From assembly GCA_031555055.1 (NCBI GenBank), contig JAVBUT010000002.1, positions 142,418-206,417 of the forward strand: a stretch of 64,000 nucleotides of DNA, given 5' to 3'. Made by a program: the position numbers and the translations under genes. This document shows, piece by piece, positions 1,322-64,000 of the stretch. The stretch is from Alphaproteobacteria bacterium. GTDB taxonomy: Bacteria > Pseudomonadota > Alphaproteobacteria > Rs-D84. Below the pieces are notes generated by a model. The model did no database searches. It worked only from the letters and a program-made list of their open reading frames with translations, and had not been told where the DNA came from. Every line of letters starts with the position of its first letter. Positions within the stretch are counted from its first letter, which is position 1.

Positions 1322-3103
1322 TTATTCTTGGGGCATCAGGCTTTGCACGGCGATCGGGAAATCGGCGCTGTGCGCAAGATATGATCCGCTGGCCAGAAAG
1401 TCCGCGCCCGCGGCCCAGCACATCTGTGCGGTTTCAGGATTGATTCCACCATCAACGGATATTTTGAATTTCAGTCCGTAACGTTTGCGTGTATTGGCCA
1501 ATACAGATATTTTGTTCAGCGCGCCTTCGTCGAATTTTTGTCCGCCGGCGCCGGGCTTTACCGACATGACCAGAACTTCGTCTATTTCCTTTAAGACCGG
1601 TTTTAGTATATCGACGCCGCTTTCCGGATTCAGCGCGATGCCGCTGCGCTTGCCCATTTCGCGAATCTTGCGCAGTGCCGAGCGAACACCGGCCGTGTTG
1701 GTCGACACGATGATCGTGTCCGCGCCAGCGTTCGCGGCCGCCGCGGCCCAGACTGCTGGGCTTTCCGTCATCAGATGCACATGCAGGTGTGCGTCGGTGT
1801 GTTCGCGTATTTGTTTTAATTCTTCGATGCCGCCGACAACGCGATCGACAAAAAATCCGTCCATCACGTCGACATGTATCATCGAAATTCCGCCGGATTT
1901 GAATAGTTCGTACGTGGCGGGACTTTTCATGTTGAACGACAGGGTGGTCGGCATTATCGGTATAAAACGCGTTGTCTTTTTTTCCTTTCTTTGGAATATG
2001 GTTGTGATTTTTGACGCAAGGCGCCCAAACCGTTCGCGGCGCGCCAGATATGTTTTGACGCGGCCCGACTGTTCCGCCCACACGTGCGCGGACAGCGCGC
2101 GCGCCGCTGCGTCCGCCCCCAGGTTCTGAACAGGTATCCCGAATGTGATTTCAATCAGATCGTCGATCCCTTTGATGCCACTGCCGCCGCCACATAGAAA
2201 TATTTTCGACGGGCTGTATTTCGCAATGTCTGTCGTGGCTGATTCCTTGATTTCAGATATTATTTCCATCAGCATGGGCATCACGACATCATTCATGTCC
2301 GCGCGTGAAAAATCATAAGCCGAATCCGCAGGGGTAAACCGGTCCATGTCGCCAGTGTCGGCGTTTGTGACCGAACACTTGATCCGTTCCGCATCGGATA
2401 CGCATATCCCCAGTGTGACCGACACGGATTTTGTAATCGCAATTTGCCCCAACGGTATCTTTTTGAAAAATACCGGGCCGCGTCCGGACCATATTGAAAC
2501 CGTTGTGAATTCGCCGCCCATGTCGATGAACATGGCGTTCTGCTTTTTGTCGCGGAACACGGTGTCCATCAGATACGACGGATCGAAAAAGGCGTCGGCC
2601 TGGATATGCGCCGCGCGCAGCCATTCGAATATGTCCCGCATTTTTGCGTCTTCGTAAAATATCGTTCCGAACACCGACGCCAAGTGACGGTCGACATATC
2701 CGACCGGTGTCAACAGGTTGCGTGCGACCGACGTGTCGTAACGCAATGGAATGATGTGCATCGGATAAAATCCGTCTGGGGGCGATATCTGTGTAATCTG
2801 GTTGCGGACGTCCGGGGCGGTAATTCTGTGTTCGGATGACCATTGGGTGCTTTTCGCGCTCATCTCGAATTCGGCGCGGCCAAAGTTTCCAGTAATGTAC
2901 GCGGAATCAAAGCGTCCGCCGATCTGGCGTTCCAGTTCGTCTACAACGGACTTTATCGCGAACACCGGGTCCGCGCTTTGCGCCGATGTGATCGCGGATT
3001 TTGTGATGCGCCCGGATTTGACGCGGTGCGCAACCGCGCGTACGGCATGACTGCCGATATCCAGGCACAGAAAAGATGAATCGAACAAGTTCATGTTAGT
3101 CAT
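1322..3103 (-). CDS. ftsA-rpe: FtsA fused in frame to ribulose-phosphate 3-epimerase (Rpe)
   Basis: N-part: LDIGS, IDMGG, DAERIK, IFLCGGGS actin-like FtsA motifs, directly downstream of ftsQ. C-part: HVDVMDG, HVHLM, MSVKPGAGGQKF, VDGGIN Rpe motifs. Single 593-aa ORF. Confidence 0.9.
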   Translation of the reverse strand: MTNMNLFDSSFLCLDIGSHAVRAVAHRVKSGRITKSAITSAQSADPVFAIKSVVDELERQIGGRFDSAYITGNFGRAEFEMSAKSTQWSSEHRITAPDVRNQITQISPPDGFYPMHIIPLRYDTSVARNLLTPVGYVDRHLASVFGTIFYEDAKMRDIFEWLRAAHIQADAFFDPSYLMDTVFRDKKQNAMFIDMGGEFTTVSIWSGRGPVFFKKIPLGQIAITKSVSVTLGICVSDAERIKCSVTNADTGDMDRFTPADSAYDFSRADMNDVVMPMLMEIISEIKESATTDIAKYSPSKIFLCGGGSGIKGIDDLIEITFGIPVQNLGADAAARALSAHVWAEQSGRVKTYLARRERFGRLASKITTIFQRKEKKTTRFIPIMPTTLSFNMKSPATYELFKSGGISMIHVDVMDGFFVDRVVGGIEELKQIREHTDAHLHVHLMTESPAVWAAAAANAGADTIIVSTNTAGVRSALRKIREMGKRSGIALNPESGVDILKPVLKEIDEVLVMSVKPGAGGQKFDEGALNKISVLANTRKRYGLKFKISVDGGINPETAQMCWAAGADFLASGSYLAHSADFPIAVQSLMPQE

Positions 3104-3140
3104 TAGTCTTTAGTCAATAGTCATTAATCACTAAAGACTA
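3096..3140. repeat. (TTAGTCA)-type heptamer array with short inverted copy, filling ftsQ-ftsA spacer
   Basis: ttagtca ttagtct ttagtca atagtca ttaatca ctaaagacta; overlaps ftsA start and ftsQ stop. Confidence 0.8.
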
Positions 3141-3818
3141 TTTTACCAGTATTCTCGCTGTGTCGCGCATATCCAGAATCTGGATATTCTTTGACATGAT
3201 TCCGTGATTTTTATCCAATGTGACCAATGTGCTGATTGCGCCGCCAGGATTATCTTCGGGCAACATGATCGTGATGTTTTCATTTGTGTGTATGTTCCAG
3301 CGCCGGTTTTCAATCCATTCCAAATACCCAAGTTGGTTCGCAAAACCCTGGGCCAGCCGGGCAATTTCGGAAATGTCGTCAGGTAATGTGCCGCGAAACA
3401 CGACGGTTCCGCCTGGGCGGTCAGCGGTTGGGGTGTTTATAACCGTACCGTTGGCGGACACCGGGAAATAGTTCGTCCCGTCGGTCCATAATGCGACCGC
3501 GCGGTGCAGCTTTACCCGTACCGCCAGATTTCCATTCGGTAACCTGCGCACGGCGGCGGCGCGCACACTGGGGGATTGCATGACGTGCGCCTGGATTTCA
3601 TCCAGGTTTGCAGAATATGTTTTTGTTCCCGGTGCGACGCCGATGTTGGATGCGATTGCGCCCAGGTTTTTATTATTATAGTCCGCAGACAATGAAACCG
3701 AACGGATTGTTGCATTCGCGCCATGTCCCATGGTGGTCATGATAATCCGGACACTGAAATACACCGCCAGTATAACGGCGAAAACAAAACACAACCAAAA
3801 CCAGAAAGTTTTTTTCAT
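3138..3818 (-). CDS. ftsQ: Cell division protein FtsQ
   Basis: Single TM, POTRA-like V..AAVRRLPNGNLAVRV, NRRWNIH, C-terminal LDMRD; upstream of ftsA. Start set at MKKTFW (3818) behind an extended -10. Confidence 0.88.
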   Translation of the reverse strand: MKKTFWFWLCFVFAVILAVYFSVRIIMTTMGHGANATIRSVSLSADYNNKNLGAIASNIGVAPGTKTYSANLDEIQAHVMQSPSVRAAAVRRLPNGNLAVRVKLHRAVALWTDGTNYFPVSANGTVINTPTADRPGGTVVFRGTLPDDISEIARLAQGFANQLGYLEWIENRRWNIHTNENITIMLPEDNPGGAISTLVTLDKNHGIMSKNIQILDMRDTARILVK

Positions 3819-3840
3819 AAGGACAATTGTATCATAAAAA

Positions 3841-3908
3841 TAGCGCATAGTCCATAGCGCTTAGCGCATAGTGTATAGCAAAATTGCTAGTCGCTATACG
3901 CTATTAGC
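3841..3908. repeat. (TAGCGCA)-type heptamer array with inverted arm
   Basis: tagcgca tagtcca tagcgct tagcgca tagtgta tagc...gctatacgcta. Confidence 0.8.
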
Positions 3909-4296
3909 TGGCTCTTAACAAATAACCACGGCGAAACATGCACTTGCGGTACGATCCGACGGATTTAGAGCTGGAATTTGGTGGAATCGACATCAGCGTG
4001 CGCTGGCCTACATCCTGATACTCGTTCGATTGGAACGTAACCCACAGACCGTCCCAGTCAGGCATCTGACCGCTTTGGTTCGGAGAAATCAGCTTTGCCA
4101 GTCTTGAACGCGGCATGTGCGCAGGCTTGGTTATTCCCAGACACGCCTTGTGATCGCGTACAAACTGTTCGGTGGTAACCGCTTCGTTTTCCCAATTCAG
4201 CACGGTCGCATTGTCGATAAGTCCGCTGTTCGGCGACGAACAGGCGGCAAGGAGTATGAAAAATGAAAAATGAAAAATGAAAAACGGTATTCTCAT
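3904..4296 (-). CDS. Hypothetical lipoprotein
   Basis: Lipobox LAAC after FFIFHFSFFIL; DHKAC and YRKCMFRRGY resemble small two-Cys lipoproteins. Confidence 0.75.
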   Translation of the reverse strand: MRIPFFIFHFSFFILLAACSSPNSGLIDNATVLNWENEAVTTEQFVRDHKACLGITKPAHMPRSRLAKLISPNQSGQMPDWDGLWVTFQSNEYQDVGQRTLMSIPPNSSSKSVGSYRKCMFRRGYLLRAS

Positions 4297-4682: not shown

Positions 4683-4769
4683 TAAATGAAAAATTAAAAA
4701 TGAAAAATGAAAAATGAAAAGCAGCTCATTCGTCATTGTAAATTTTTCGCAGATATAAAAGGGAAAAGA

Positions 4770-6104
4770 ATGAAAACAATATTAAAGGCATTTTTCATTT
4801 TTAATTTTTTATTTTTCATTTGTGGTTGCGCCAAGATGAATCAGAACGATATGTCACAGTACGACACCGTCCAGGTCATAGACCAACTGGTGATCGATGA
4901 AAACTCTGTGCCGATCTTTCCGAAAAAAGCGGCGCTGACTACGGATACAGCGCGCCGGTTTTCAATCGAATTGCCAAAGCGATGCACAGTCGATTGGAAT
5001 AACCAGACAGTCTTGAGCGTTGTACCCGAAGAAAAAATCGAAATAGTTCGGCTGGATGTCGGCGATCCATTGCCGGATTTTAATGTGTCCGATTACGAAT
5101 TTACCAAAATGACGGTGACCGACGCGCTGGACAAATTATTGGACGGCACGAACATCGCGGTCGTCGAAGATGAAAAACTGGTCGAGAAAATCACAGGATC
5201 GATTCAATCCGGATCGCTTTCTGATTCTGTCGAACTGATCGCGAAAATGGGCAAGGCGTATTATTCCTATGACGATGATGCGCGCGAAATACATCTGTCG
5301 CATCGCGCAAAGTGGCTGATGAAAATGCCAAAGGACGAGAATATAATCATGGCGCTGCTGGATGCTATGCACGGCGCGGATATGCGCAACCTGTTGGTGG
5401 ACTGGCAGGACAAGACAGTTATATTCGAAGGTAATTACCAGACAGAACGCGAAGTCGCGAAAATCGTCAGCGACGTCGGATCAAAGAAATACATGATCGC
5501 GTGGGATATCGACGTATACCGCGTATATCCGCGCACGGACAATCCGATCATCTGGATGAACATATTGCCGGCGTTCGGCGACAAGAATGTCCGCATGTCG
5601 ATACCGGGCGTTGTCGGGCGCGCGCTGGTGGTAAGCCCGGAAATCAATACAAAAACGCTTCAGGAATTTTTAGGTCAACAGTCAAACGTTGTTCTGGTGT
5701 CCCAGGGGCGTTTTGTGATTCCGAACGGGTGGCAGTCGCGGTTTGACATCGGCCAATGCGGCAAGGAAGACCGCCTGGAAACTGATCTGACAATTGGGGC
5801 GACGGCGAAATATCTGGATTACGCGGGAAATAAAAAGATCGATTCCAAAATCGTGCTGCGCACGGGATCGGGCGAATTGTCTTCGTTTAAAATCCCAAGC
5901 AGCGTTGGTGACAACTATGTGATTGTCGGAATTCCGACACATTCGTTCGTAACCGATCCGGTCACATTAATATCACCGTTCGCGGAACTGGTCGTATTCA
6001 TGTCGCCGCGCATGATCGCGATTACGGACGCGCAAAACTATTCGCCGGCGCCACAAATGATGCCGCTGATGGGTGATGATCTGCGAAGCTATCTAGAAGA
6101 TTAA
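4770..6104 (+). CDS. Lipoprotein with secretin-like N-terminal domains (possible lipoprotein secretin)
   Basis: Lipobox ICGC; MTVTDALDKLLDGTNI...GSLSDSVELIAKMGKAYYSYD resembles secretin N0/STN domains; beta-rich C-half ending ELVVFMSPRMI, like the secretin ELVIFITPRII motif. Confidence 0.55.
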   Translation: MKTILKAFFIFNFLFFICGCAKMNQNDMSQYDTVQVIDQLVIDENSVPIFPKKAALTTDTARRFSIELPKRCTVDWNNQTVLSVVPEEKIEIVRLDVGDPLPDFNVSDYEFTKMTVTDALDKLLDGTNIAVVEDEKLVEKITGSIQSGSLSDSVELIAKMGKAYYSYDDDAREIHLSHRAKWLMKMPKDENIIMALLDAMHGADMRNLLVDWQDKTVIFEGNYQTEREVAKIVSDVGSKKYMIAWDIDVYRVYPRTDNPIIWMNILPAFGDKNVRMSIPGVVGRALVVSPEINTKTLQEFLGQQSNVVLVSQGRFVIPNGWQSRFDIGQCGKEDRLETDLTIGATAKYLDYAGNKKIDSKIVLRTGSGELSSFKIPSSVGDNYVIVGIPTHSFVTDPVTLISPFAELVVFMSPRMIAITDAQNYSPAPQMMPLMGDDLRSYLED

Positions 6105-12544: not shown

Positions 12545-13092
12545 TAAAATTCGTCGGGTCTTTTGAAACCGTAAAATCGCTGCCGAAAACGCAGTTCGCG
12601 GAATACGCCTTTATCGGGCGCAGCAACGTTGGAAAATCATCGCTGATCAATGCGATCGCAGGTCAAAAAATCGCGCGCACATCAAACACGCCGGGCCGGA
12701 CCCAGTCGCTGAACCTGTTCAATTTCGGCGACCGTATCATGATTGTCGATCTGCCGGGATACGGCTATGCCAAGGTGTCCAAGGCGGACACGGCAAGGTG
12801 GCTAGAAAGATTGGAAGAGTATCTGATGACGCGGCGCCAGCTGACGCGGCTGTTCGTGCTGGTCGATTCGCGCGTCGGGGTCAAGGAATCCGATCTGGAT
12901 ATAATGTATTTCTGTGACGCGAACGGGATTTCCTATCAACTGGTGTTTACAAAAAAAGATAAAAAAGTTCGCGAGAAAACCCAATGCGAATTATGTGCAG
13001 ACGAACATCCTGCGATGATTGATGAAATTCTGGAAACGTCGGCGGAAAAAAAGCAGGGGATCGACAGGCTGCGCGAAATCATCGGTCTTTAG
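12541..13092 (+). CDS. engB: Ribosome biogenesis GTPase YihA/YsxC
   Basis: GRSNVGKSSLIN, TSNTPGRTQ, DLPGYGYAK, TKKDK. Confidence 0.95.
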   Translation: MIKFVGSFETVKSLPKTQFAEYAFIGRSNVGKSSLINAIAGQKIARTSNTPGRTQSLNLFNFGDRIMIVDLPGYGYAKVSKADTARWLERLEEYLMTRRQLTRLFVLVDSRVGVKESDLDIMYFCDANGISYQLVFTKKDKKVREKTQCELCADEHPAMIDEILETSAEKKQGIDRLREIIGL

Positions 13093-13105
13093 GCAGCGGT
13101 GCAAA

Positions 13106-15598: not shown

Positions 15599-15603
15599 AA
15601 AAC

Positions 15604-15667
15604 ATTAGCGCATATCGTTTGGTGTTTAACAATTATGCTATATATTATACGCTATTCACTATTCGCT
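15604..15667. repeat. Degenerate TAGCGCA/TGCGCTA heptamer array between convergent addB and xth
   Basis: ttagcgcatatcg...tatgcta tatatta tacgcta ttcacta ttcgcta. Confidence 0.6.
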
Positions 15668-15668
15668 A

Positions 15669-24055: not shown

Positions 24056-24058
24056 TTG

Positions 24059-25180: not shown

Positions 25181-25222
25181 TTATCTCTCTCTTTTATTAA
25201 TATTCTGAAAAATGCAGGTTGA

Positions 25223-48143: not shown

Positions 48144-48146
48144 GAA

Positions 48147-48205
48147 CGTAATTCGTGAATCGTGATTCGTAATTCGGATCACGCGTCACGAATCACGAGT
48201 CACGG
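48147..48205. repeat. (CGTGATT)n / (AATCACG)n inverted heptamer array between yajC and secD
   Basis: cgtaatt cgtgaat cgtgatt cgtaatt cg gatcacg cgtcacg aatcacg agtcacg. Confidence 0.85.
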
Positions 48206-48214
48206 AGTTTATAA

Positions 48215-49765: not shown

Positions 49766-49807
49766 GTGACAGTGTCGGTGACAGTGTCAGTAAAAAAGGT
49801 TTTAAAG

Positions 49808-50671: not shown

Positions 50672-50805
50672 AATGAAAAATGAAAAATGAAGAATGAAAA
50701 AATATTTTGTCTTCATTTTATCATTACTTAGAAAAAAGCAAGGAAGGTAAATCATGAGAGCGATATTGAAATCATTTTTCATTATTCATTTTTCATTTTT
50801 CATTT
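50670..50805. repeat. (AAAATGA)n array after secF and complementary (TTTTCAT)n in the next gene's signal sequence
   Basis: aaatgaaaaatgaaaaatgaagaatgaaaaa (50671-50701) versus tttttcattattcatttttcatttttcattt (50775-50805). Confidence 0.85.
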
Positions 50806-52259: not shown

Positions 52260-52282
52260 TTAGTGTTAGCGGTTAGTGGAGA

Positions 52283-52957
52283 ATGGTTATGTTTTTACGC
52301 AAAGATAATACGATCAAATGGAAGGAAATTGGCATCGCGGCCACGATAACTGTTGCGCTGTGTGTGGCGGGCGCATTGTGGTTTGATAAACCGATGTTTA
52401 TGTTTATGCGCGAATTCGATTGGCATGTATGGGGTCTGCTGGACCAGTTGTTCGCGACCAAGGTATGGCTGTTTGTATCCGCGGTCGCGGCGGTATTGAT
52501 CGCCGGCCGTATCGCGGCCATAAACAAGGAGCGCCGGTTTCAACTGATTCTGAAAAATTTTATTGCAGAATTCAAAGCGCGTGCAAAATCCAATCCAGGA
52601 TTTTTGGTGTTCGCGTCCGTCCTGTGTGCCAGCATTGTCGGCGGAATATTAAAGTACGGCCTGGGGCGCGCCCGTCCGATATTTTACGAGGCGCTGGGGC
52701 ATACGGGTTTTTATCCATTTACACCGGAATGGGCATTTAATTCGATGCCGTCGGGGCATGCGACTGCGTCGTTTGCGGGTCTGGTAATGATCGGTATGCT
52801 GTTTCCAAAGATCAAGTGGGCTACATGGACGGGTGCCATTATAATCGCGCTGTCACGTGTGTGCTATGGCGCGCATTGGCCGTCGGATGTAATACTTGGG
52901 GCATTTATCGGTATGGTCACGGCTGACTTGGTAAAGAGTTGGTTTTATAAGAAGTAA
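52283..52957 (+). CDS. PAP2 family membrane phosphatase (lipid A phosphatase-like)
   Basis: K..LGRARP, SMPSGH, SRV..GAHWPSDV..G. Confidence 0.92.
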   Translation: MVMFLRKDNTIKWKEIGIAATITVALCVAGALWFDKPMFMFMREFDWHVWGLLDQLFATKVWLFVSAVAAVLIAGRIAAINKERRFQLILKNFIAEFKARAKSNPGFLVFASVLCASIVGGILKYGLGRARPIFYEALGHTGFYPFTPEWAFNSMPSGHATASFAGLVMIGMLFPKIKWATWTGAIIIALSRVCYGAHWPSDVILGAFIGMVTADLVKSWFYKK

Positions 52958-52963
52958 ATATCT

Positions 52964-52985
52964 GGGCGCAAATATGCGCCCCTAC
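52964..52985. repeat. GTAG-type REP-like palindrome (inverted)
   Basis: gggcgcaaatatgcgcccctac. Confidence 0.75.
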
Positions 52986-53000
52986 AAATAAAGGCATAAT

Positions 53001-53579
53001 ATGAAAAACGCGATAATTTTACATGGTACGGATGATACACGCGAGGATGTGTTTGCTGCACCGAACAGCTTGTCTAATATGCATTGGTTCCCATGGCTGC
53101 AATGGGAATTGATAAAACAGGGCATTTTAACCCAAACGCCGGAAATGCCAAATCCATGGGATGATCAGGTAAACTATGATGAATGGGCGATGGTGTTCGA
53201 ACAATTCCCAATCAATCAATATAGTGTATTAATAGGACATTCGTGGGGTGGGGGCTTTTTATTAAAATATTTATCCCAGTATCCGGAAATAAGGATAGAT
53301 CAATTGGTTTTGGTTGCGCCATCTATTAATACCGAAAAGTGTGGTGATTTTATGAAGGGGTGGAATGGTGATACGAAACTGGCCGATCGCATTGGGCATA
53401 TAGATATCTTATATTCGGTGGATGATAATAAAGAAATAATAAACAGCGTGAAACAAATTATAAAGTTCTTTGACGTTGCAAAAAATTTTACAGTTCATAA
53501 ATTTGAAAACAAAGGACATTTTATACAAAGCAGAATAGGCAAAGAATTCCCGGAACTGTTGGCGGTGATTAACCATTAG
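53001..53579 (+). CDS. RBBP9/YdeN family alpha/beta hydrolase
   Basis: IILHG, HWFPWL, MPNP, LIGHSWGG, LVAP, S.DD, GHF, FPELL. Confidence 0.88.
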   Translation: MKNAIILHGTDDTREDVFAAPNSLSNMHWFPWLQWELIKQGILTQTPEMPNPWDDQVNYDEWAMVFEQFPINQYSVLIGHSWGGGFLLKYLSQYPEIRIDQLVLVAPSINTEKCGDFMKGWNGDTKLADRIGHIDILYSVDDNKEIINSVKQIIKFFDVAKNFTVHKFENKGHFIQSRIGKEFPELLAVINH

Positions 53580-53665
53580 CGCATAGCGCATAGCGTATAG
53601 CGATTAGCGGTTCTGCTCTGACACTATGCGCTAAGCGCTATCTCGCTATTTGCTATGCGCTAATT
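53577..53665. repeat. TAGCGCA / TGCGCTA inverted heptamer array
   Basis: tagcgca tagcgca tagcgta tagcgat tagc ... tgcgcta agcgcta tctcgcta tttgcta tgcgcta. Confidence 0.88.
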
Positions 53666-53695
53666 GTTAATTCACTTTCACCTACACCTTTACAT

Positions 53696-53711
53696 GTTTT
53701 TATGATATAAT
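53696..53711 (+). promoter_or_regulatory. Extended -10 promoter 6 nt before ftsK ATG (probable leaderless transcript)
   Basis: TTTTTATGATATAAT-TCGCGC-ATG with no SD. Confidence 0.6.
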
Positions 53712-53717
53712 TCGCGC

Positions 53718-55955
53718 ATGGCAAATAATGCAAAGTTTCTGCCGGAACGTGTGTCCGGTGCCTTGAAAAGTCTTGCCCTGCGTACGCTGGGGCTGGTGTT
53801 GCTGGCGCTGGGGGTGTGGTTTACGTTCGCGCTGTTTTTTCAAAATCCATATTTGAACGGTTTCGCCGCATCCAGCAATTTCGGCAACCAGAATCTGATT
53901 GATAATATCGTCGGATTTGTCCGGTACGGTATCGGCTTTGTGCCGGCACTATTCTTGTTTTTATGCATTGCGCGCACAGGATTGTCGTTCATGATGAACT
54001 GGTCTGATGAACGCGCGCCGGAATACAACGCATTGCGCGGGTTTATCGCGATATGTGCGGGCGCCGCCGGTTTCGGCGCGATATGGCCGGGAAACACGCT
54101 GGGCGGAATGGCGGGCAGCATTGTTGCGTCTGACATCGGATCGTTCGCAGGTCCGTGGACGTTTGTATTCGGAATTGCATTTTTATTAATATTCTTTTTA
54201 ATGGCCGGAAAGTTATTAAATATCAGCTGGCGCGACCTGCAGGCCTTGGCGCGCGCTATATACAGGTCGGTCCGCTGGATACTATCGGTGTTCCATCTGG
54301 TAAAAATGGCAGAGCCAGAAGAGGATAATTCCGACGAAGAAGAATACGAAGACGAAGAATCAAACGAAAAAGAAAAGCCAGCCCGCGCGGCGCGAAAAAA
54401 AGCCGTGCCTGTCACAAAAATAAAATCGAAAAAATCCAAAACATCCGAACACGAACACGAATACGAATTGCCTGATCCGGAATTTTTGGAAAAATCCGTA
54501 TTTGGCAAACATGTGATCACGCCGGAGTTGAAGCGCAACGGTTCCGCAATGGAGGCGCACTTTGAAGAATTCGGCGTATACGGCCATGTCGTCGGGATCA
54601 AGCCGGGGCCGGTTGTCACATTGTATGAATTCGAACCTGATTCCGGTGTGCGCATTGCCAAGGTTACCGATACCGTCAAGGATATGACCCGCGCCATGGC
54701 GGCGGAAAACATCCGTATTGCGCATATTCCGCGCACAAACTATATCGGTGTTGAAATGGTTAATTTGAATCGCCAGCCAGTGCGGTTCCAATCATTGATT
54801 ACAAACTCTGCGTTTGTGGAGTCAAAATACAAGATACCGCTGGCGCTGGGGGTTGATATCGGCGGACACCCGATGTATTTCGATCTGGCCAAGATGCCGC
54901 ATTTGCTGATCGCGGGGCGCACCGGATCGGGTAAGTCCGTATTTGTCCAGTCCATTATAATGTCGATCATGTATCACTTTACGCCTGATCGGTGCAAGCT
55001 GATGGTTGTGGACCCCAAGGCTGTGGACTTTACATTATGGGATAATATCCCGCACTTGATCACGCCGGTTCTGACGGACGCAAATTCGTCTGTGAATGCG
55101 CTGAAATGGTCTGTGCGCGATATGGAAGAAAGATACAAAAAACTGAAAGACCTGGGCGTTCAGAATATCGAAGGATATAACGACGCGGTTGCAAAGCTGC
55201 GCGCGGCCGGCAAAAAAATAACCAAACAGGTCGCCGTCGGCACCGATCCGGAAACGGGCGCGTTGGAATTCGAAGAACAAGAAGTCGACTTGTCCGACAT
55301 GCCGTACATGGTCATTATTATTGACGAGGGGGCCGACCTGATGTCTGTTGCACGTAAAGAAGTCGAGGCATGCGTCCAGCGTCTGGCGCAAAAGGCGCGC
55401 GCGGCGGGCATACACTTGGTCGCGGCGACCCAGCGCCCGGACACAACCGTCATTACCGGTGTTATCAAGGCGAATTTCCCGACACGCATATCATTCCAGG
55501 CGCGGTCAAATATCGATTCTATGACGACGCTTGGCGAAAAGGGCGCGGAACAATTATCGGCGTTCGGCGATATGCTGTTCAGCGAGGCGGGCAGGGTGCC
55601 GGTCCGAATTCACGGCGCGCTGATCGAAAATGTTGAAATCAACCGCGTGGCGGATTTCTTGCGTGCACAGGGCGAACCGGAATACGCCGAAGGTGTTGCG
55701 GACGGCGATGGCGGCGATTTTGGCGGCGCGGGTGCGACGCCGATACCGGGCATGCCGGTGAGTAAGGGCGACAAGGATTCCGACCTGTACGAACAGGCAA
55801 AGCAATACGTTGTCCGTGACAAGAAACCCACGATTTCATACATCCAGCGCAGACTTGGCGTCGGTTATAACAAGGCCGCCGGATTTATGGAACGGATGGA
55901 AACCGAAGGCGTTGTATCGGCCCCGGATGCGAATAACAAACGACAGATATTGTAA
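53718..55955 (+). CDS. ftsK: DNA translocase FtsK
   Basis: N-terminal TMs, PGPVVTLYE, DLAKMPHLLIAGRTGSGKSV, IIDE, RLAQKARAAGIHL..ATQRP, gamma domain SYIQRRLGVGYNKAA. Confidence 0.97.
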   Translation: MANNAKFLPERVSGALKSLALRTLGLVLLALGVWFTFALFFQNPYLNGFAASSNFGNQNLIDNIVGFVRYGIGFVPALFLFLCIARTGLSFMMNWSDERAPEYNALRGFIAICAGAAGFGAIWPGNTLGGMAGSIVASDIGSFAGPWTFVFGIAFLLIFFLMAGKLLNISWRDLQALARAIYRSVRWILSVFHLVKMAEPEEDNSDEEEYEDEESNEKEKPARAARKKAVPVTKIKSKKSKTSEHEHEYELPDPEFLEKSVFGKHVITPELKRNGSAMEAHFEEFGVYGHVVGIKPGPVVTLYEFEPDSGVRIAKVTDTVKDMTRAMAAENIRIAHIPRTNYIGVEMVNLNRQPVRFQSLITNSAFVESKYKIPLALGVDIGGHPMYFDLAKMPHLLIAGRTGSGKSVFVQSIIMSIMYHFTPDRCKLMVVDPKAVDFTLWDNIPHLITPVLTDANSSVNALKWSVRDMEERYKKLKDLGVQNIEGYNDAVAKLRAAGKKITKQVAVGTDPETGALEFEEQEVDLSDMPYMVIIIDEGADLMSVARKEVEACVQRLAQKARAAGIHLVAATQRPDTTVITGVIKANFPTRISFQARSNIDSMTTLGEKGAEQLSAFGDMLFSEAGRVPVRIHGALIENVEINRVADFLRAQGEPEYAEGVADGDGGDFGGAGATPIPGMPVSKGDKDSDLYEQAKQYVVRDKKPTISYIQRRLGVGYNKAAGFMERMETEGVVSAPDANNKRQIL

Positions 55956-55977
55956 AAACGCCCCACGGGGCGTTTTT
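55954..55977 (+). terminator. Intrinsic terminator
   Basis: aaaaacgcccc ac ggggcgttttt. Confidence 0.75.
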
Positions 55978-55980
55978 ATT

Positions 55981-56080
55981 AATCACTAGTCATTAGTCAA
56001 TAGTCGATAGTAGGAGTGCATATTTGCGCCCCTTATATCTGGGCGTATGCAATACGCCCCTACTAATGACTATTTACTAA
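55981..56080. repeat. Inverted REP pair nested inside inverted TAGTCA heptamer arms
   Basis: ctagtca ttagtca atagtcg ata gtaggagtgcatatttgcgccc ... gggcgtatgcaatacgcccctac taa tgacta tttacta. Confidence 0.8.
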
Positions 56081-56144
56081 AAAAGCCTTTTGTATAAAAG
56101 GCTTTTTTATGATATAATTTAGTCATAAAAAGGAGTTTTATAAC

Positions 56145-57338
56145 ATGAAAAAGCAAGTATCTTTATTCTTTCTGGCGGCCGCGATATTCGGTGTTGCGCC
56201 GGCCGTTGCCGCAACGAATTCCGGCACGTATGGCGCATCCAGCGCGGATTTGACCGGTGCGCCGGCCACGCGCGCACGCACGTCTGTGAACTATGAAAAG
56301 TATGAAACGCGCAGTTCCAGCAAGACATACACAACCAAAGATTCCGATAAAAATCTGTATTACAGCCAACCTTCATCGCGCAGCAGCGCATACAACAATA
56401 TGGGCACGACACGCACAGAATCTTCGCGCACAACGCGCAGCGAATCGTCACGCACATCGGCAAAACGCAAATACTATCTGGCGCACCCGTTTTTCCAACC
56501 GCTGGAAGGTAAGGTAGGGTCTGTGACGGACCTTTCCTATGCGTCCAGTTCTTATAATGTGGCGTTGACACCGCTGGCGGGATTTACAATCAGCGATGAT
56601 GACGCAAAGTGGGACATGAAGCGCTTTTCTGTAAAAGAAGATTTGTCGTACGGTATTACGGATCGCTTGGCGGTTGTCGGAATGCTGCAGTATGACAGCT
56701 CTACATACACAATGGACTGGTCCACCGCGCCGGATGACACGATGAAGGATTCCGGGATCAACCTGTATGGTTTGGGTCTGCAGTGGCGCTTTACCGACAG
56801 TGCGGAATGGATCGCGACACTGTCCGGATATTTCCAACACCAAACGGATATCGCGAACACATTTATCGCGGACCTGAAAGCAGGGTACAAGGTCAACACG
56901 TCGACATTCTATGGCTTGCTGCGCGGATGGCTGGTTGATTTCGAAGGTAATTCATATGGAAACGGAATCGATGACGGCAACGGCACGGCGATATTTATTG
57001 CATACGATACCGATGTCAGCACAGCATTCTATGTCGAAGGCGGTCTGGGGGTATTCACTGTCTTGGGCGAAGATTGGACATTGAATCTAGAAGCAGTGTT
57101 CGGCAACTATGACTGGCATAACCAGGCGTCGCTAAAAGGCGCGATCGGATGGCAGCCAGGCGAATCGTTCGCACTGAACCTGTATGCTAAAACAGCGATA
57201 TACGACAGCGCCGACGGCCAGGATTTGGGCTTTTGGTGGCTTGACCCGTCATTGCCGGATTGGGAACACCGCGGAACCGCCCACATCAGCAACTATGCCG
57301 AATGGACGATTGGCGCCCAGGCGATATTGTATTTCTAA
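56145..57338 (+). CDS. Outer-membrane beta-barrel protein with Ser/Thr/Arg-rich N-terminal extension
   Basis: Signal peptide, amphipathic beta strands (LSYGITDRLAV, LGLQWRF), C-terminal aromatic F. Confidence 0.78.
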   Translation: MKKQVSLFFLAAAIFGVAPAVAATNSGTYGASSADLTGAPATRARTSVNYEKYETRSSSKTYTTKDSDKNLYYSQPSSRSSAYNNMGTTRTESSRTTRSESSRTSAKRKYYLAHPFFQPLEGKVGSVTDLSYASSSYNVALTPLAGFTISDDDAKWDMKRFSVKEDLSYGITDRLAVVGMLQYDSSTYTMDWSTAPDDTMKDSGINLYGLGLQWRFTDSAEWIATLSGYFQHQTDIANTFIADLKAGYKVNTSTFYGLLRGWLVDFEGNSYGNGIDDGNGTAIFIAYDTDVSTAFYVEGGLGVFTVLGEDWTLNLEAVFGNYDWHNQASLKGAIGWQPGESFALNLYAKTAIYDSADGQDLGFWWLDPSLPDWEHRGTAHISNYAEWTIGAQAILYF

Positions 57339-57357
57339 TCGGCAAAGCCGATTAGAA

Positions 57358-57501
57358 ATAATGAAAAATTAAAAATGATATATGAAAAATAATTTTTCAT
57401 ATATCATTGGTGGTTTTTCACGGATCATATATACAAATATAAGATTTTGATATGAAGAAACTATTAACTATATTTTTCATTTTTAATTTTTCATTTTTCA
57501 T
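57358..57501. repeat. (AAAATGA)-type array upstream and complementary (TTTTCAT)n in signal sequence of the 57452 gene
   Basis: atgaaaaattaaaaatga (57361-57378) versus tcatttttaatttttcat (57477-57494), an exact reverse complement. Confidence 0.85.
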
Positions 57502-58168
57502 CTGTTCTGCGCGCGCGGACACGGGGTACGACGTCGAAGACCCGATGTTTATACTGTCTGCGACGGATTTCCTGTCACGCACGGGATTGTCAATGGACAC
57601 CGAAAGCATTTTAAAGATTTCGCAAAAATTTGCATACGGTCTGAACAACAGATTATCAGTTGGCGCATCGTTCCATTACCAACAGGATTTTGACGGGCCC
57701 GAAGACGGATTTTCAAATATCGATCTGTCCGGAACGTACCGTCTGTCCGCCGGCAGCGAAGATTCGCGTATAATATCTGACGCGCTATTCGGCGTAAAGA
57801 TCAATGGAAATGACCGTGTCCGCGATCCGGAATTTGCCGACACTGTATGGTATGCGGGATTGCGCGTCGGACGCCAGTGGTCCGGAATAACGCTGGCCGG
57901 TACTGTCAAGACCAGCTGGATTTTCGATGAAACCCGCGGAATGGCCTATATAGACTTTATACCAGAGGCTTATTTCAGATTCGATGAAAAATGGAAAATG
58001 GGAATCGGAATGGATTTCCGTGTCGCAACCAATCCTAATTTCGACCAGGAATGGGTGAACTTTAAATTCCTGCGCCAGTATGGGCGCACGCAGTATGTCG
58101 GGCATGTCGACTATGAAATCGAATCTGACGAATGGCAGTTCGGCGCGCGCGTAAACATAGTGTTCTAA
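57452..58168 (+). CDS. Outer-membrane beta-barrel protein
   Basis: Signal peptide; FAYGLNNRLSVG similar to upstream barrel; ends WQFGARVNIVF. Confidence 0.78.
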   Translation: MKKLLTIFFIFNFSFFICSARADTGYDVEDPMFILSATDFLSRTGLSMDTESILKISQKFAYGLNNRLSVGASFHYQQDFDGPEDGFSNIDLSGTYRLSAGSEDSRIISDALFGVKINGNDRVRDPEFADTVWYAGLRVGRQWSGITLAGTVKTSWIFDETRGMAYIDFIPEAYFRFDEKWKMGIGMDFRVATNPNFDQEWVNFKFLRQYGRTQYVGHVDYEIESDEWQFGARVNIVF

Positions 58169-58268
58169 AACACGGGGGATTCTTGAATATCCTGTTGACT
58201 GAATTATGTTTTTTATTCTATATTCTGGCGTGTAGGAATCAAAACACAAAAATAAAAAGGCAAAACTG

Positions 58269-61057: not shown

Positions 61058-62836
61058 ATGGTAAAAAAATTAAGCATATTTGGTCGTGCAAAAAAATATT
61101 TTGATCAATCAAAAACGGTAAAAAAATTGGGCGCCGGGTTTGAAAAAATTCCAAGTGGCTTGGGTAAAGCTGGTAAAAAACTGGTGTCAAAAAAAATAGA
61201 AACCTGGTACGGAAAAACCGGAAAATTGACCGGGGCGTCATTGTTAATCGCGGCCCAGGCGATTACTAAAAGCATAAAAATAATTGGGGTCGATAATCTT
61301 GTTCTGCGCACTGCGGAAATAGAATTTTCAAAAATAAAATCGAATAAAAAACTTGCCGCGTTTATAAGAAAACATCCCTTTATACCGGCTTATATCGTCA
61401 ATGCCATGTTTATGGCTGGTGTGTTTTTTGGTGGTAAAGCCACACTTGATAAAATCAAAAGCCCAGTGGAAAAAGTTGTGACCATAACAGCAGACCAATT
61501 ACCGGCATATTATAAACAAATGTCAATAGTGGTGAAGCCCGCCAATGTCGGTCTGGCGATTATTCCCGAAGGAATGCTGTATAAAGCGCTGTATACATCT
61601 GCCGATGGTATGTGGAATCTAGCAGGGTGCATAACGGTTATTCCAGTTGATAAAAACAACTTGATGGGTAAATGGCGTCCGGTCAAAGAAGGTGATACAT
61701 GTACCCCAGATGAGGCGATAATATGGATGGGTGCCTTTTTTGATAAATTCATATATCCGATATTGAATAATAATTTGAAAGTACAAGTATCAACAGATAT
61801 GTATATTGCATTGGCGGATTTTGCATACAATAACAAGGATCCGTATAATTTTGACAATCAAATGATACGTGCCTTGAACGATGGTAAGTCAGAAGAAGAC
61901 GTATTGAAAATGTTTTCTCATTATCGTGGTGGCGACAATGCGCCCACGGTTCGTCGTGGATTACTAAAGCGACGCTGGATAGAGGCTTTTGTTGCCGGTG
62001 GCGCATGCAATTATACCAGGTTGCTTGATTGTCATATATCTGGATTAACCAGTATCAATTACACGAACTTTTACACTGACGATACTAATGACAAAAGTAA
62101 GCCGTACTACAAATATGATTTTTCAGAAAGTTTGATAGAGATGTTTTATAATAAAACGGTTGCTGGCGGAATATCGATCCGTGAAGAGTTTATGAAAAGC
62201 AAAGCCGGTCGTGAATATATTAAAAAAATAGAAACAATGCCGCGCACAATAACGCTGGAAGTTGCAGAGGACAAGGTTCGCCAAGAAAAGATAGAAAAAA
62301 CGAAAAAATCACCAAAGCAATATGTTTTGGCGGATCAGATAAAAAAATTGATATCTGATGGCGAGCTCGCGCATAAACAAGGTGACTATGATGTTGCGGA
62401 ACTAAAATTTATGGACGCACTGTCATTGGATGATGAAAATTATGATGCCTATAACAGTCTATCATTCACGCTGTACAAAGCTAAGCGATACAAGGACGCA
62501 ATCGTTGCGGCACAAAAGTGCATAAATCTCGCTCATAAATTTGAAAAAACAGGTGTCGTCGATGACGATGTTTATGCAATGGCATATTATAATGCTGGAA
62601 TTTCACGTGAAGCGTTGGGGGAGTTTGAAGTTGCGTTAAAAAACTATAAGACGGCATCTCTGCGCAGTCCGGACAACCAGATATATAAAATATCAATAGA
62701 AAGTGTATCAAAAAAAATCAAAGAACAAGAAAATAAAAAAAGTACATTTAATAATGCGGTAAAAAAAGTCGATAAGAAACAGGCGGTTAAAAAAAGTTCT
62801 TTGAAAAATAATAGACAGGGACGGACTGAAAGATGA
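61058..62836 (+). CDS. Membrane-anchored GH24 (phage-type) lysozyme-like domain plus TPR repeats
   Basis: TM near aa 107-126; IIPEG...Y...DG.W, VKEGDTCTPDEA, ALADFAYN, RALNDG, GLLKRR..E; C-terminal TPRs (AYNSLSFTLYK..RYKDAI, AYYNAG..R..LGEFE.AL..YK.A...PDN). Confidence 0.72.
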   Translation: MVKKLSIFGRAKKYFDQSKTVKKLGAGFEKIPSGLGKAGKKLVSKKIETWYGKTGKLTGASLLIAAQAITKSIKIIGVDNLVLRTAEIEFSKIKSNKKLAAFIRKHPFIPAYIVNAMFMAGVFFGGKATLDKIKSPVEKVVTITADQLPAYYKQMSIVVKPANVGLAIIPEGMLYKALYTSADGMWNLAGCITVIPVDKNNLMGKWRPVKEGDTCTPDEAIIWMGAFFDKFIYPILNNNLKVQVSTDMYIALADFAYNNKDPYNFDNQMIRALNDGKSEEDVLKMFSHYRGGDNAPTVRRGLLKRRWIEAFVAGGACNYTRLLDCHISGLTSINYTNFYTDDTNDKSKPYYKYDFSESLIEMFYNKTVAGGISIREEFMKSKAGREYIKKIETMPRTITLEVAEDKVRQEKIEKTKKSPKQYVLADQIKKLISDGELAHKQGDYDVAELKFMDALSLDDENYDAYNSLSFTLYKAKRYKDAIVAAQKCINLAHKFEKTGVVDDDVYAMAYYNAGISREALGEFEVALKNYKTASLRSPDNQIYKISIESVSKKIKEQENKKSTFNNAVKKVDKKQAVKKSSLKNNRQGRTER

Positions 62837-64000
62837 AAACAATCGTAAACTATAGCGATCTGCGGTGGGAAAAATATAAAATCGATTTTAGCAAAATCGC
62901 CAATGCCGCAGCCACATCTGTGCACAAGGATTCCGAAGTGTCGGTTGTTCTGACAAACGATAAAGAAATCCATACACTGAACAAACAATATCGCGGATTT
63001 GATAAACCGACAAACGTATTGTCTTTTGAAACAGGTGACGACGAATTATTGGGGGATATTTATATTTCGTTCGATACCGTCCTGCGCGAGAGTAAAGAGC
63101 AGGGCATCCCATTCAAAGATCATGTGGCGCATATGGTTGTGCACGGTGTGTTGCATCTGATTGGGTATGATCATTTGAATGATAATGACGCTGATAAGAT
63201 GGAAAAGCGGGAAGTTGCAATTTTAAAAAAAATAGGGATAGGGAATCCGTACCGGTCAGAAGAGGGGAAAATGCTGAAATCAAAAAAAATATCAGAAAAA
63301 ATAAAGATCAAAGATGGCGGGTGCATGCAATGGGCGCTGTATCTTGTTCTGGGCGGATTGGCGTCGTTGGGGTTTGCGCCGTTCAATCTTTGGTGGGCAA
63401 CGGTGTTGGGAATCGGCGCGGCATACTATCTGACTGTGCGAAACATTGGTTCGGATAAGAAAGCCGGTTTTTGGAAAACGCTTTTGCATATTTGGCCATT
63501 CGGGGCGGGTTATGCAGCGTCCATGTTCTGGTGGGTTACCAATTCGATATATGTGGTGCCGGAACTAGCGTCGCAGTTTGCGATATGGACAATGCCGGCA
63601 ATTATCGGAATCGCACTGGTCGGCGGGATTGTCTTTGCAATCCCATTTGTATTGACGCGATGTATATACATAAAGCCTGCGGCACGGCCATTTATGTTTG
63701 CGGGTGCATGGACGCTGATCTTGTGGCTGCGCGAGTGGCTGTTTACAGGCTTTCCGTGGAATCCGATTGCGAATATTGCAATTGATTATCCGGTTATTGC
63801 GAACTCTATGTCTTTATGGGGGGCACTGGGGTTGACTTTTGTGATTATCGGATTGGTTGCGGGTGTTGTGGAATTAATAAAGTGCAAAGTGCAAGGTGCA
63901 AAGTGCGATTATCTCGCGGTATTGGTTTTTATTGTTTTAATGATAATTGGTTCTGTGTTTGGATATCGCAACATAGGGCAATCTGAGATCAAAAACTATG
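62833..64000 (+). CDS. ybeY-lnt: rRNA maturation RNase YbeY fused in frame to apolipoprotein N-acyltransferase Lnt (3'-truncated by window edge)
   Basis: Own translation from ATG 62833 is open to the window end: LN.QYRG.DKPTNVLSF, LGDIYIS, HGVLHLIGYDH, GNPY (YbeY), then LGFAPF, WWVTNSI, LREWLFTGFPWN (Lnt). Confidence 0.9.
   Translation, partial: MKTIVNYSDLRWEKYKIDFSKIANAAATSVHKDSEVSVVLTNDKEIHTLNKQYRGFDKPTNVLSFETGDDELLGDIYISFDTVLRESKEQGIPFKDHVAHMVVHGVLHLIGYDHLNDNDADKMEKREVAILKKIGIGNPYRSEEGKMLKSKKISEKIKIKDGGCMQWALYLVLGGLASLGFAPFNLWWATVLGIGAAYYLTVRNIGSDKKAGFWKTLLHIWPFGAGYAASMFWWVTNSIYVVPELASQFAIWTMPAIIGIALVGGIVFAIPFVLTRCIYIKPAARPFMFAGAWTLILWLREWLFTGFPWNPIANIAIDYPVIANSMSLWGALGLTFVIIGLVAGVVELIKCKVQGAKCDYLAVLVFIVLMIIGSVFGYRNIGQSEIKNY

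Follow-up and report, generated by a model that had tools for sequence, protein, structure and literature searches.

The stretch analyzed here (the window: C8:142418–206417 of the alphaproteobacterial genome G000, 64 kb) carries tandem arrays of short units, mostly 7 nt long, between and inside its protein genes, and many of these arrays are followed by their own reverse complement. On balance, we are inclined to regard them as the gene-less members and single arms of a lineage-specific population of hairpins of the intervening sequence (IVS) type, which would have been spread and homogenized at the DNA level and whose members would be RNase III substrates if transcribed. This reading is carried by the association of the arrays with genes of the TIGR02436/PF05635 four-helix-bundle family ("23S rRNA IVS protein," S23p; gene and protein are both called IVP below). 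Such genes lie between inverted arms of the same periodicity, and among close relatives array density follows IVP gene content.

Abundance, pairing, and folding of the arrays

Arrays were called with Tandem Repeats Finder (TRF) in the window and in the whole G000 assembly (887,658 bp in 10 contigs, 77% complete). The window gave 73 TRF rows, 33 of which had period 7, and the genome gave 860, including 316 rows of period 7, 76 of period 14, 23 of period 21, and 77 of period 6. Five genomes simulated with a third-order Markov model served as the chance model; each yielded 193–221 rows, with only 21–29 of period 7 (mean, 26.2), so that the real genome has an approximately 12-fold excess. The 316 period-7 arrays represent 89 canonical units in about ten large families, the commonest units being AAAAATG (49 arrays), AATCAGG (26), AAATCAG (25), AATAGTC (22), AATGACT (19), and AATCACG (18). 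Among the 106 pairs of neighboring period-7 arrays within 600 nt of each other, 44 were inverted pairs of the same unit, compared with 7.0 when unit labels and strands were shuffled (approximately sixfold), and 10 were direct pairs of the same unit, compared with 7.3. An earlier reading of the window, made from the sequence alone (the sequence-only reading), had proposed a window-wide system of inverted heptamer arrays and had stated beforehand that array or inverted-pair frequencies no higher than in shuffled sequence would speak against it. Both frequencies lie far beyond chance, and the system extends through the genome rather than being local. Given head-to-tail 7-nt copies and over-representation, the arrays belong to the heptanucleotide type of long simple sequence repeats (LSSRs) or short tandemly repeated repetitive (STRR) sequences.

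The length of the arrays was peaked, with 137 of the 316 at 30–35 nt and 144 having between four and five copies (4.x); the monotonic decay in length expected of slippage alone was not seen in these genome arrays. Five array-rich relatives likewise had a median array length of 30 nt. Two long arrays stand apart as outliers: an AAATGAA array outside the window (C8:260924–261006) has 11.9 copies, against the 30–35-nt mode, and one period-7 TRF row of the genome has 21 copies in 153 nt.

The gaps between inverted arms fell into three classes, 3–30 nt (plain hairpins), 41–112 nt, and 201–502 nt. At 12 loci in the window, an array is accompanied by its reverse complement within about 110 nt, with arms of 22–38 nt (3840, 4684/4789, 15604/15652, 22296, 23962/24030, 25134/25223, 31941/31980, 48147/48179, 50670/50772, 53577/53624, 55978/56060, and 57355/57472); the inverted repeats of an IVS element, with a stem of at least ~20 bp, are thus present at 12 window loci. 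When 12 window loci were folded as RNA and compared with mononucleotide shuffles, the z-scores ranged from −1.3 (15600–15680) to −12.0 (23960–24065), and 10 of the 12 were at −3.6 or lower. The strongest folds were those at 23960–24065 (−54.6 kcal/mol, z −12.0) and 53570–53672 (−50.1 kcal/mol, z −9.6).

Association of the arrays with IVP genes

The sequence-only reading had noted that the window lacks a four-helix-bundle gene, had linked heptamer arrays to such genes of the 23S rRNA IVS type in other phyla, and had proposed a search of the genome for four-helix-bundle or Avd-like genes. That search gave six PF05635 matches, all outside C8:142418–206417 and each beside arrays, and the link proved to be real and strong, both in the bracketing of IVP genes and in their co-distribution with arrays. 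Three of the IVPs (L001, L003, and L004) were scanned against NCBIfam and matched TIGR02436 with 100–121 bits; the same proteins scored 20–34 bits against NF033474, the Avd family of diversity-generating retroelements (DGRs), for which the cut-off is 80, so that IVP is related to Avd only distantly. Among solved structures, the closest is 2GSC (Xanthomonas campestris XCC0516), which was deposited with five chains. To our knowledge, PF05635/TIGR02436 is a large family with solved structures and without a known function outside DGR Avd.

TRF arrays adjoin all six IVP genes of G000, and five of the six loci have inverted arms, so that a PF05635/TIGR02436 open reading frame (ORF) occupies the hairpin loop there, as in an IVS element, and in no hairpin of the window. 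In this test, the 150-nt stretches on the two sides of the Pfam match of the IVP gene were compared for their best ungapped inverted match, and a gene was considered bracketed when this match scored at least 12 and its arm had a 6–8-nt periodicity (self-match of at least 0.6); windows shifted by 1 kb served as controls. Across 17 related genomes, 48 of 55 IVP genes were bracketed (42 with period 7, four with period 6, and two with period 8), compared with 0 of 60 controls. A survey of public genomes with the profile of one IVP subfamily then yielded 80 loci in Bacteroidota, Planctomycetota, Desulfobacterota, Acidobacteriota, Chloroflexota, candidate phyla, and three archaeal lineages. Bracketing was seen in 57 of the 79 loci that could be used (45, 7, and 5 with periods 7, 6, and 8, respectively), compared with 0 of 139 controls, and 10 were checked by eye. 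Outside the cassettes, 180 kb of flanking sequence at these loci contained 34 strong arrays, most of them at 18 loci; this corresponds to 1.88 per 10 kb, compared with 0.15 per 10 kb in the IVP-free relatives of G000. Three relatives (G027, G044, and G037) have one IVP gene and almost no free arrays, and their cassettes are still armed; therefore, the arms are part of the cassette itself rather than being taken over from resident hairpins. Three of the five cassette units also occur as free arrays in G000 more often than their letter-shuffled counterparts (AGTGAC, 26 vs. 2.2; GTGAATC, 30 vs. 7.1; TAGCGCA, 15 vs. 1.7).

PF05635 was found in 17 of 61 relatives, namely, in G000, in 16 of the other 36 members of its family, and in none of 24 genomes of five other families of the order. 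Array density was surveyed in 44 relatives on contigs 1 and 2 (first 20 kb, 3–40 kb each), disregarding IVP loci. The six genomes with 4–12 IVP genes had 6.5 (G030), 6.0 (G006), 5.5 (G022), 3.1 (G011), 3.0 (G029), and 2.6 (G000, counted over the whole genome) strong period-7 arrays per 10 kb. Eleven genomes with 1–3 IVP genes, several of them sampled for 9–11 kb only, had 0–2.4, and 28 IVP-free genomes had 0–0.75, with a median of 0. Density was correlated with IVP count (Spearman rho 0.57; Mann-Whitney p 8e−4), with both values overstated because kin are not independent. On a quick tree of one protein, SecD, with 29 rows, IVP presence changes at least four times, and the group containing G000 is unresolved and includes genomes of both kinds, with and without IVP.

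Gain of arrays relative to related genomes

The sequence-only reading had also proposed a comparison of orthologous junctions. We recovered the region syntenic with positions 46000–58200 of the window from ten relatives. G000 has 11 TRF period-7 rows in 12.2 kb of this region, G006 has 13 in 19 kb, and G005 has four (plus three of period 6) in 16 kb, and the other syntenic relatives, including four genomes of the same GTDB genus, have 0–2 weak rows. All six junctions of the region carry arrays in G000; wherever the junction is present in G004, G001, or G003, it is a plain spacer of 20–90 nt. Arrays are thus lineage specific, with plain spacers in array-free relatives. Between yajC and secD, an array hairpin was seen by eye in 6 of 13 IVP-bearing genomes and in 0 of 14 IVP-free genomes. 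The six hairpins have six different units (CGTGATT, TTAACAA, AGTGCA, GATTTMT, GATTTAA, and the octamer AGAGAATA), and even G005 (AGTGCA) and G030 (TTAACAA), which belong to one genus, differ. Because one junction carries different units in different genomes, the claim that period and inverted pairing, and not sequence, are conserved holds.

Inside genes, the arrays corresponded to insertions of 4–10 residues relative to array-free orthologs in all three genes compared. The NQKSEIRNQK segment of a glycosyltransferase is a 10-residue insertion missing from five of five orthologs compared. The NHESRITNH insertion of a XerC/D-type recombinase is missing from G001, G003, and G004, and the same loop has other, longer insertions in G005 and G006. 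In a PD-(D/E)XK protein, ESGIGNQ and ESGIRNQ are both insertions relative to array-free orthologs. Judged from these orthologous comparisons, the arrays are acquired insertions confined to some lineages.

Placement of the arrays relative to genes

Relative to gene calls made for this analysis, which are crude (82% coding), 126 of 327 merged arrays were intergenic, 102 lay within ORFs, and 99 touched a gene end. Array density per kilobase of intergenic DNA was 1.36 where the flanking genes are co-directional, 0.90 where they diverge, and 0.39 where they converge; co-directional spacers are therefore approximately 3.5 times denser in arrays than convergent ones. From this co-directional excess, we infer that the arrays may punctuate polycistronic mRNAs, as the sequence-only reading had suggested. 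RNase III is encoded in G000, and the window hairpins are probably substrates of this enzyme when transcribed.

Arrays within the ORFs of the window are single and not palindromic. In confident ORFs of the genome, the unit was stop-free in every phase of the sense strand in 57 of 63 strong in-ORF arrays, which is nearly a logical necessity since three heptamers run through all seven codon phases, and 55 of the 63 had a stop on the opposite strand. In-gene arrays are therefore single and always in one orientation. The peptides most often encoded were EIRNQKS (15), ESGIRNQ (14), ESRITNH (7), and FFIFHFS (6), and in-frame arrays of this kind add loops of approximately 10 residues to housekeeping enzymes, so that the repeats act on proteins as well.

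The 41–112-nt gap class consists almost entirely of AAAATGA … TCATTTT pairs with one layout: an upstream arm in the 5′ leader, a spacer comprising ribosome site, start codon, and about six codons, and a downstream TCATTTT arm from which the hydrophobic core of a signal peptide, K-S-FFIFHFSFFI, is translated. When three TCATTTT units were searched for (up to three mismatches, both strands), 53 places were found, 52 of them with an ORF; 20 of the 52 were in the first 15 codons of an ORF of at least 80 residues, and 13 of these 20 had an upstream partner. This count is conservative because longest-ORF starts overshoot several true starts. One repeat unit thus now supplies the hydrophobic signal-peptide core in many exported proteins, five of them in the window (4256, 4789, 25134 [MltA], 50772 [S41], and 57472). 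The G006 orthologs of two such proteins have the same layout with other units (CCATCAT; TTGTTAT/ACAGATA), the G005 ortholog of one carries TGCCTTA, and array-free relatives have ordinary signal peptides of equal length. Overall, the arrays occupy sites at which translation tolerates them: the gaps between a stop codon and the next ribosome site, the stop-free strand in protein loops, and, as pairs, the start regions of exported proteins.

Array sites and other features of the window

All copies in the window lie between or inside protein-coding ORFs and none in an rRNA helix (23S helix 25 or 45). The sites are as follows; minimum free energies (MFE) are in kcal/mol.

135–166: TAATTGA array, 4.6 copies, at a stop/start junction.
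3096–3145: TTAGTCA array, 5 copies, with a short inverted piece; it fills the junction between an FtsA-domain ORF (1322–3094, − strand) and an FtsQ-domain ORF (3138–3848, − strand); z −2.8.
3840–3905: TAGCGCA array followed by its inverted copy, a hairpin upstream of the ftsQ-like ORF; z −4.5.
4256–4284 (− strand): TCATTTT array encoding FFIFHFSFFI, the core of a lipoprotein-type signal peptide (ORF 3904–4296), without an upstream partner.
4684–4821 (+ strand): AAAATGA array, 68-nt spacer with ribosome site and start codon (4770), and TCATTTT array encoding the signal-peptide core KAFFIFNFLFFICGC; z −4.3.
15006–15189 (+ strand): two single GGAATCA arrays, in frame as ESGIGNQ and ESGIRNQ, in a PD-(D/E)XK nuclease-domain ORF (13019–15598).
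15604–15675: degenerate TAGCGCA array and inverted CTATTCG array; z −1.3, a weak fold.
18705–18805 (− strand): two single in-frame arrays, AGGTTTG and ATTCCTG as read on the + strand, inside mnmE/trmE (18413–19720, − strand).
22296–22355: TAGCGYA array and partial inverted copy after an ORF ending at 22312, read directly.
23962–24062: hairpin of 33–35 bp with TAGCGCA/TAGCATA units between two − strand ORFs; MFE −54.6, z −12.0.
25134–25260 (− strand): GAAAAAT array, spacer with start codon, and TCATTTT array in the signal peptide of an MltA-domain lipoprotein (24059–25180); z −3.6.
25848–25884: degenerate CACCTW-type array beside a GC-rich palindrome and a TATGATAAAA promoter-like box, with a similar piece at 53675–53695.
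31927–32005: TAGCGMA hairpin between convergent ORFs; z −6.8.
32337–32368 (− strand): perfect ATTTCTG array, 4.6 copies, encoding NQKSEIRNQK in a family-2 glycosyltransferase.
38500–38631: AGTGTC hexamer array (38500–38526) and GTGCAAA array (38605–38631) in one intergenic region; these are the arm units of two IVP cassettes elsewhere in the genome.
43591–43620 (− strand): perfect CGTGATT array, 4.3 copies, encoding NHESRITNH in a XerC/D-type recombinase.
48147–48204 (+ strand): CGTGATT hairpin, loop of 2 nt, fitting exactly into the space from the yajC stop codon to the secD ribosome site; z −6.3.
49765–49791 (+ strand): AGTGAC hexamer array at the secD-secF junction, starting one base past the secD stop codon (TAA, 49763–49765).
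50670–50805 (+ strand): AAAATGA array, spacer with ribosome site and start codon (50754), and TCATTTT array encoding KSFFIIHFSFFI of the signal peptide of an S41 peptidase; z −5.7.
53577–53662 (+ strand): TAGCGCA hairpin, the first TAG being the stop codon of ORF 53001–53579, upstream of the promoter-like box of ftsK; MFE −50.1, z −9.6.
55978–56075 (+ strand): ATAGTCA/TTAGTCA array and inverted copy around two GC-rich palindromes, just past a canonical terminator hairpin; z −6.7.
57355–57501 (+ strand): GAAAAAT array, spacer with start codon (57452), and ATTTTTC array in the signal peptide TIFFIFNFSFFICSA; z −6.3.
63879–63906 (+ strand): AAAGTGC array, 4 copies, in frame in an ORF with an Lnt N-terminal domain.

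Every unit named by the sequence-only reading was recovered in the window: TTAGTCA at 3096; TAGCGCA at 3840, 23970, 31933, and 53577; AAAATGA at 4256, 4684, 25134, 50670, and 57355; CGTGATT at 43591 and 48147; GAATCAG at 15006 and 15164; ATTTCTG at 32337; AAAGTGC at 63879; and the hexamers AGTGTC/AGTGAC at 38500 and 49765 and CACCTW at 25848 and about 53680. All eight intergenic sites that it had cited were also confirmed, with those at 15604 and 22296, read directly, consisting of a degenerate TAGCGCA array and an incomplete inverted copy of it.

A second, unrelated repeat family in the window consists of perfect or near-perfect GC-rich palindromes (18282–18391, 37041–37186, 42611–42775, and 55995–56065; for example, TAGGGGCGCATATTTGCGCCCT and its complement), in one case with a 34-nt arm pair 97 nt apart. 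These palindromes are nested in the loops of heptamer hairpins in the window and at C4:29035, C8:18360, and C8:272560. G000 also has a Y1_Tnp (IS200/RAYT-like; RAYT, REP-associated tyrosine transposase; REP, repetitive extragenic palindromic sequence) match outside the window (C8:258953–259156, 24.9 bits, in a 185-residue ORF), with similar weak matches in G008, G022, and G030; this ORF may be associated with the GC-rich palindromes and not with the heptamer arrays. A conserved box, TTTTATGATATAAT, which looks like an extended −10 promoter, lies directly past array hairpins and 5–25 nt upstream of several start codons (25885–25900, 53695–53712, and 56105–56125), and also at orthologous junctions in G001, G003, G004, and G006; its position suggests very short leaders. 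The small gene of the alpha/beta-hydrolase fold at 53001–53579 is present at its junction only in G000 and G006, with array hairpins following it in both, and is absent from G001, G002, G003, and G004. Two long ORFs without an in-frame stop each combine domains of two proteins that are usually separate, namely, FtsA and ribulose-phosphate 3-epimerase (1322–3094, − strand) and YbeY and the Lnt N-terminal domain (62833–63999, + strand); they may reflect genuine fusions, stop codons that were lost, or errors of the assembly.

Origin and maintenance of the arrays

In the IVS-type reading, each arm would be a run of ~31 nt of a 6–8-nt unit (mostly 7) and would usually have an inverted copy, giving a stem of 20–40 bp. 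The complete element would hold the IVP gene in its loop, with six complete forms in the genome and none in the window. Elements would spread by duplication, so that some copies share loops, and their arms and units would be kept alike through DNA-level slippage and strand switching between arms. When transcribed in operons, duplexes of 25–35 bp would be cut by RNase III, as in the homologous Coxiella 23S rRNA IVS; the cuts would separate cistrons, and duplexes around start regions would tune translation.

Several sequence features bear on these steps. The same 9-nt loop (catctcacc, or the complement) recurs in three GAAGTTT hairpins, which also have a compound order of units in common; this indicates copying from a common source. 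In orthologous cassettes, the arms stay complementary while the unit drifts in all copies of both arms, as in AGTGAC (G000) and AGTGCA (G005), assigned to the same junction by their shared upstream flank; such drift is concerted change. As a lead only, three of the four loops of free CGTGATT hairpins resemble, by eye, the inner 3′ end of the CGTGATT cassette (tgtcgtttt beside the arm). We also considered whether in-gene arrays arise at the tips of pre-existing hairpins, an idea prompted by the XerC/D case, in which 11 of 14 flanking bases are complementary; 68 in-gene arrays had a mean of 6.38 complementary bases, compared with 6.32 at random in-gene sites (p = 0.42), and the idea was rejected as a general one. 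A recognition code between protein and unit was likewise rejected: two of the three IVP pairs with more than 70% identity differ by no more than one base in their unit, and the overall relation between IVP similarity and unit similarity is weak (Spearman −0.19), with at most 6% of pairs below 70% identity sharing a unit.

The IVS-type reading has to be weighed against several contrary observations. No target-site duplication, conserved flank, or terminal sequence beyond the arrays was found in 23 hairpins of four unit families. Of 114 mismatches among 1,379 paired arm positions, 38 were G·U and 32 were A·C; arm complementarity thus gives no sign of selection on the sense RNA, and copying or correction at the DNA level through slippage and strand switching fits at least as well. 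In signal peptides, the arm swaps the hydrophobic core without changing its length relative to G004, which looks like overwriting in place rather than insertion. Two of the five cassette units of G000 are not enriched as free arrays. The relatives are not independent, and on the one-protein tree, only about four state changes underlie the co-distribution. In a class-wide sample, 24 of 401 Alphaproteobacteria (G000 included) carry PF05635; four others of these, with 7, 3, 3, and 1 IVP genes, had 0.5, 0, 0, and 0.33 strong arrays per 10 kb in samples of 60–80 kb, and four IVP-free Alphaproteobacteria had 0, 0, 0, and 0.5. The relation between more IVP genes and more free arrays is therefore absent from this comparison outside the family of G000, and IVP genes are not sufficient for a genome-wide bloom. 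Y1/RAYT transposases were rejected as a mobilizer: Y1_Tnp was found in 4 of 61 relatives with 21–26 bits and does not follow the arrays, the weak matches being in three of the six array-rich genomes and in one array-free genome. Finally, a third of the sampled words of the stretch were present in the assembled contigs of metatranscriptome run X2, the only RNA run containing this DNA; these contigs stop or branch at arrays, as do those of DNA run X1, and do not show transcript ends.

Some of these points would be expected if the arrays arose purely in place, with slippage favoring 7-nt units, as Mrazek proposed, and strand switching at quasi-palindromes perfecting the inverted copies. On this explanation, which we consider improbable but by no means negligible, the replication or repair background would be permissive, IVP cassettes would be merely another substrate, and nothing would move. 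It would account for hairpins lacking target duplications and conserved flanks, for arms lacking a G·U bias, for the few free arrays of IVP-bearing Alphaproteobacteria outside the family, and for a signal-peptide core overwritten at equal length beside a T-rich region that is naturally quasi-complementary to A-rich arrays; the copy number of the Coxiella heptamer also varies (PMC4990558). It fits poorly with the 30–35-nt length peak without decay, with one loop shared by three hairpins at unrelated sites, and with AGTGCA in G005 and TTAACAA in G030 at one junction in one genus. Moreover, the cleanly measured insert of the glycosyltransferase is 10 residues (30 nt), which is not a whole number of 7-nt units, and 28 IVP-free relatives are nearly free of arrays, with no difference in repair or replication identified. 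The arrays might instead be bound by regulators that recognize specific RNA or DNA sequences and would then make up a post-transcriptional regulon, an idea proposed for the TAACTGA repeats of Beggiatoaceae; paralogous IVP pentamers could be the readers, each for its own unit. Most arrays are located a short distance upstream of start codons, co-directional junctions have the highest density, the Beggiatoaceae repeats are similarly placed upstream of start codons (MacGregor 2015, PMC4679880), 2GSC has five chains and an array ~4.5 units, and the units of two of three closely similar IVP pairs differ by at most one base. We nevertheless think this unlikely, because protein similarity predicts the unit so weakly; the largest families of G000 (AAAATGA, GAATCAG/AGAAATC, and TTAGTCA) have no cassette of matching arms in the assembled 77% of the genome, and in-frame arrays in housekeeping genes and differing units at one junction in close relatives would be odd for a regulon.

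Ordinary intrinsic terminators or REP-like mRNA stabilizers would also form stable stems at gene ends, some of them at the 3′ ends of convergent genes (31927–32005), but the stems here are A/T-rich rather than G+C-rich and are not followed by a T-run, several stand beside a separate canonical terminator (55955–55978; C4:29035; C8:272560), many enclose start regions or sit in genes, and density is lowest in convergent DNA (0.39 vs. 1.36 per kb in co-directional DNA); we give this explanation very little credence. Equally hard to credit is the writing of arrays by a reverse transcriptase that copies a short template reiteratively, IVP being in this case the counterpart of Avd, the DGR accessory protein. 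G000 does encode a reverse transcriptase outside the window, at the extreme edge of a contig (C1:~110–1150) and preceded by a G-run/C-run hairpin, whose motif IGNLCSQ...YLNELD is typical of DGR enzymes, and IVP is distantly related to Avd, below the cut-off of that family. RVT_1 was found in 21 of 61 relatives, including 10 of 17 IVP-bearing but 5 of 20 IVP-free genomes of the family. As a co-factor, reverse transcriptase is neither necessary nor sufficient among these relatives, since the array-rich G030 (79% complete) and the less dense G034 and G042 have none, and G038, G039, G040, G041, and G043 carry one without IVP genes or arrays. In addition, the G000 enzyme lies 100 kb from the nearest IVP gene, and the three IVPs scanned do not reach the Avd cut-off.

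Returning to the IVS-type reading, it can be extended to a broader proposition, which we regard as possible though doubtful: that IVP cassettes represent, across bacteria and archaea, the autonomous version of a class of hairpin-ended elements not described so far. When active, as in the gut lineage of G000, such elements would seed heptamer runs of ~31 nt genome-wide, and they would be the source of the heptanucleotide excess in cyanobacteria, Xanthomonas, Bacteroidota, and others, with the 23S rRNA IVS being only their best-known landing site. Their runs would settle between cistrons and within protein loops and would even provide ready-made signal-peptide cores. The comparison of close relatives with and without IVP genes joins the puzzle of the heptamer excess and that of IVP function in one question, namely, whether IVP binds, processes, or propagates its own 7-base arrays. 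The arrays also bear on how small, streamlined genomes tolerate and use selfish DNA.

Comparison with known systems

The closest counterpart is the 23S rRNA IVS. In the Coxiella study (PMC4990558), a 28-bp stem at 23S rRNA helix 45 has the S23p ORF in its loop, and this ORF is preceded by three tandem GACAGAT heptamers, whose number varies between strains; RNase III cuts the IVS at the first heptamer in vitro, with the ends mapped by rapid amplification of cDNA ends (RACE), and Leptospira, Brucella, and S23p of the Xanthomonas type are also cited there. The same layout, a PF05635/S23p ORF in the loop of an inverted-repeat stem, is seen in the six cassettes of G000, in 48 of 55 of its relatives' genes, and in 57 of 79 loci elsewhere. 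Unlike the 23S rRNA IVS, the elements here lie between or inside protein genes and around start codons, and the copies in the window have no ORF. Unlike in Coxiella, both arms are whole arrays of 4–5 units, and the cleavage that we infer for them is taken from the Coxiella case.

That some prokaryotes have too many heptanucleotide repeats was recorded in 2007 (Mrazek, Guo and Shah 2007, cited in PMC4692102), and no cause has been given since. According to PMC4692102, the Xanthomonas repeat GGGAATC forms 70–75 convergent inverted pairs per genome, and its length and sequence vary between close species. The arrays of G000 resemble the published heptamer repeats (Xanthomonas GGGAATC, Beggiatoaceae TAACTGA, and cyanobacterial STRR) in having period 7, in having 2–6 copies, and in being mostly intergenic, often just upstream of starts. 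They differ in that one dominant unit is described for each of those genomes, whereas G000 has 89 canonical units in about ten large families, and also in their peaked length, their in-frame arrays in housekeeping genes and signal peptides, and their demonstrated link to IVP. In their accessible text, neither PMC4692102 nor PMC4679880 contains the words "intervening" or "S23" or mentions a link to IVP, and full-text searches, supplements aside, gave only the Coxiella paper for an association of IVP with heptamer arrays, where it is hinted at.

The arrays can also be compared with REP/REPIN elements and the associated RAYTs, and with MITEs (miniature transposable elements with inverted repeats). 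Like these, they are short, many-copy intergenic hairpins, their gene-less forms outnumber the gene-bearing ones, and other small elements nest in their loops. Unlike REPs/REPINs and MITEs, they have no conserved sequence past the 7-nt unit, no target duplication, and no terminal motif; their candidate partner IVP has no known nuclease fold, and the weak Y1_Tnp match does not track them. The arrays are thus of a known kind, both as heptanucleotide repeats and as IVS elements, and the genome family of G000 has an unusually rich variant that offers a clean comparative handle on their cause: close relatives with and without IVP genes differ approximately twentyfold in array density, at the very same junctions, and so constitute a natural experiment.

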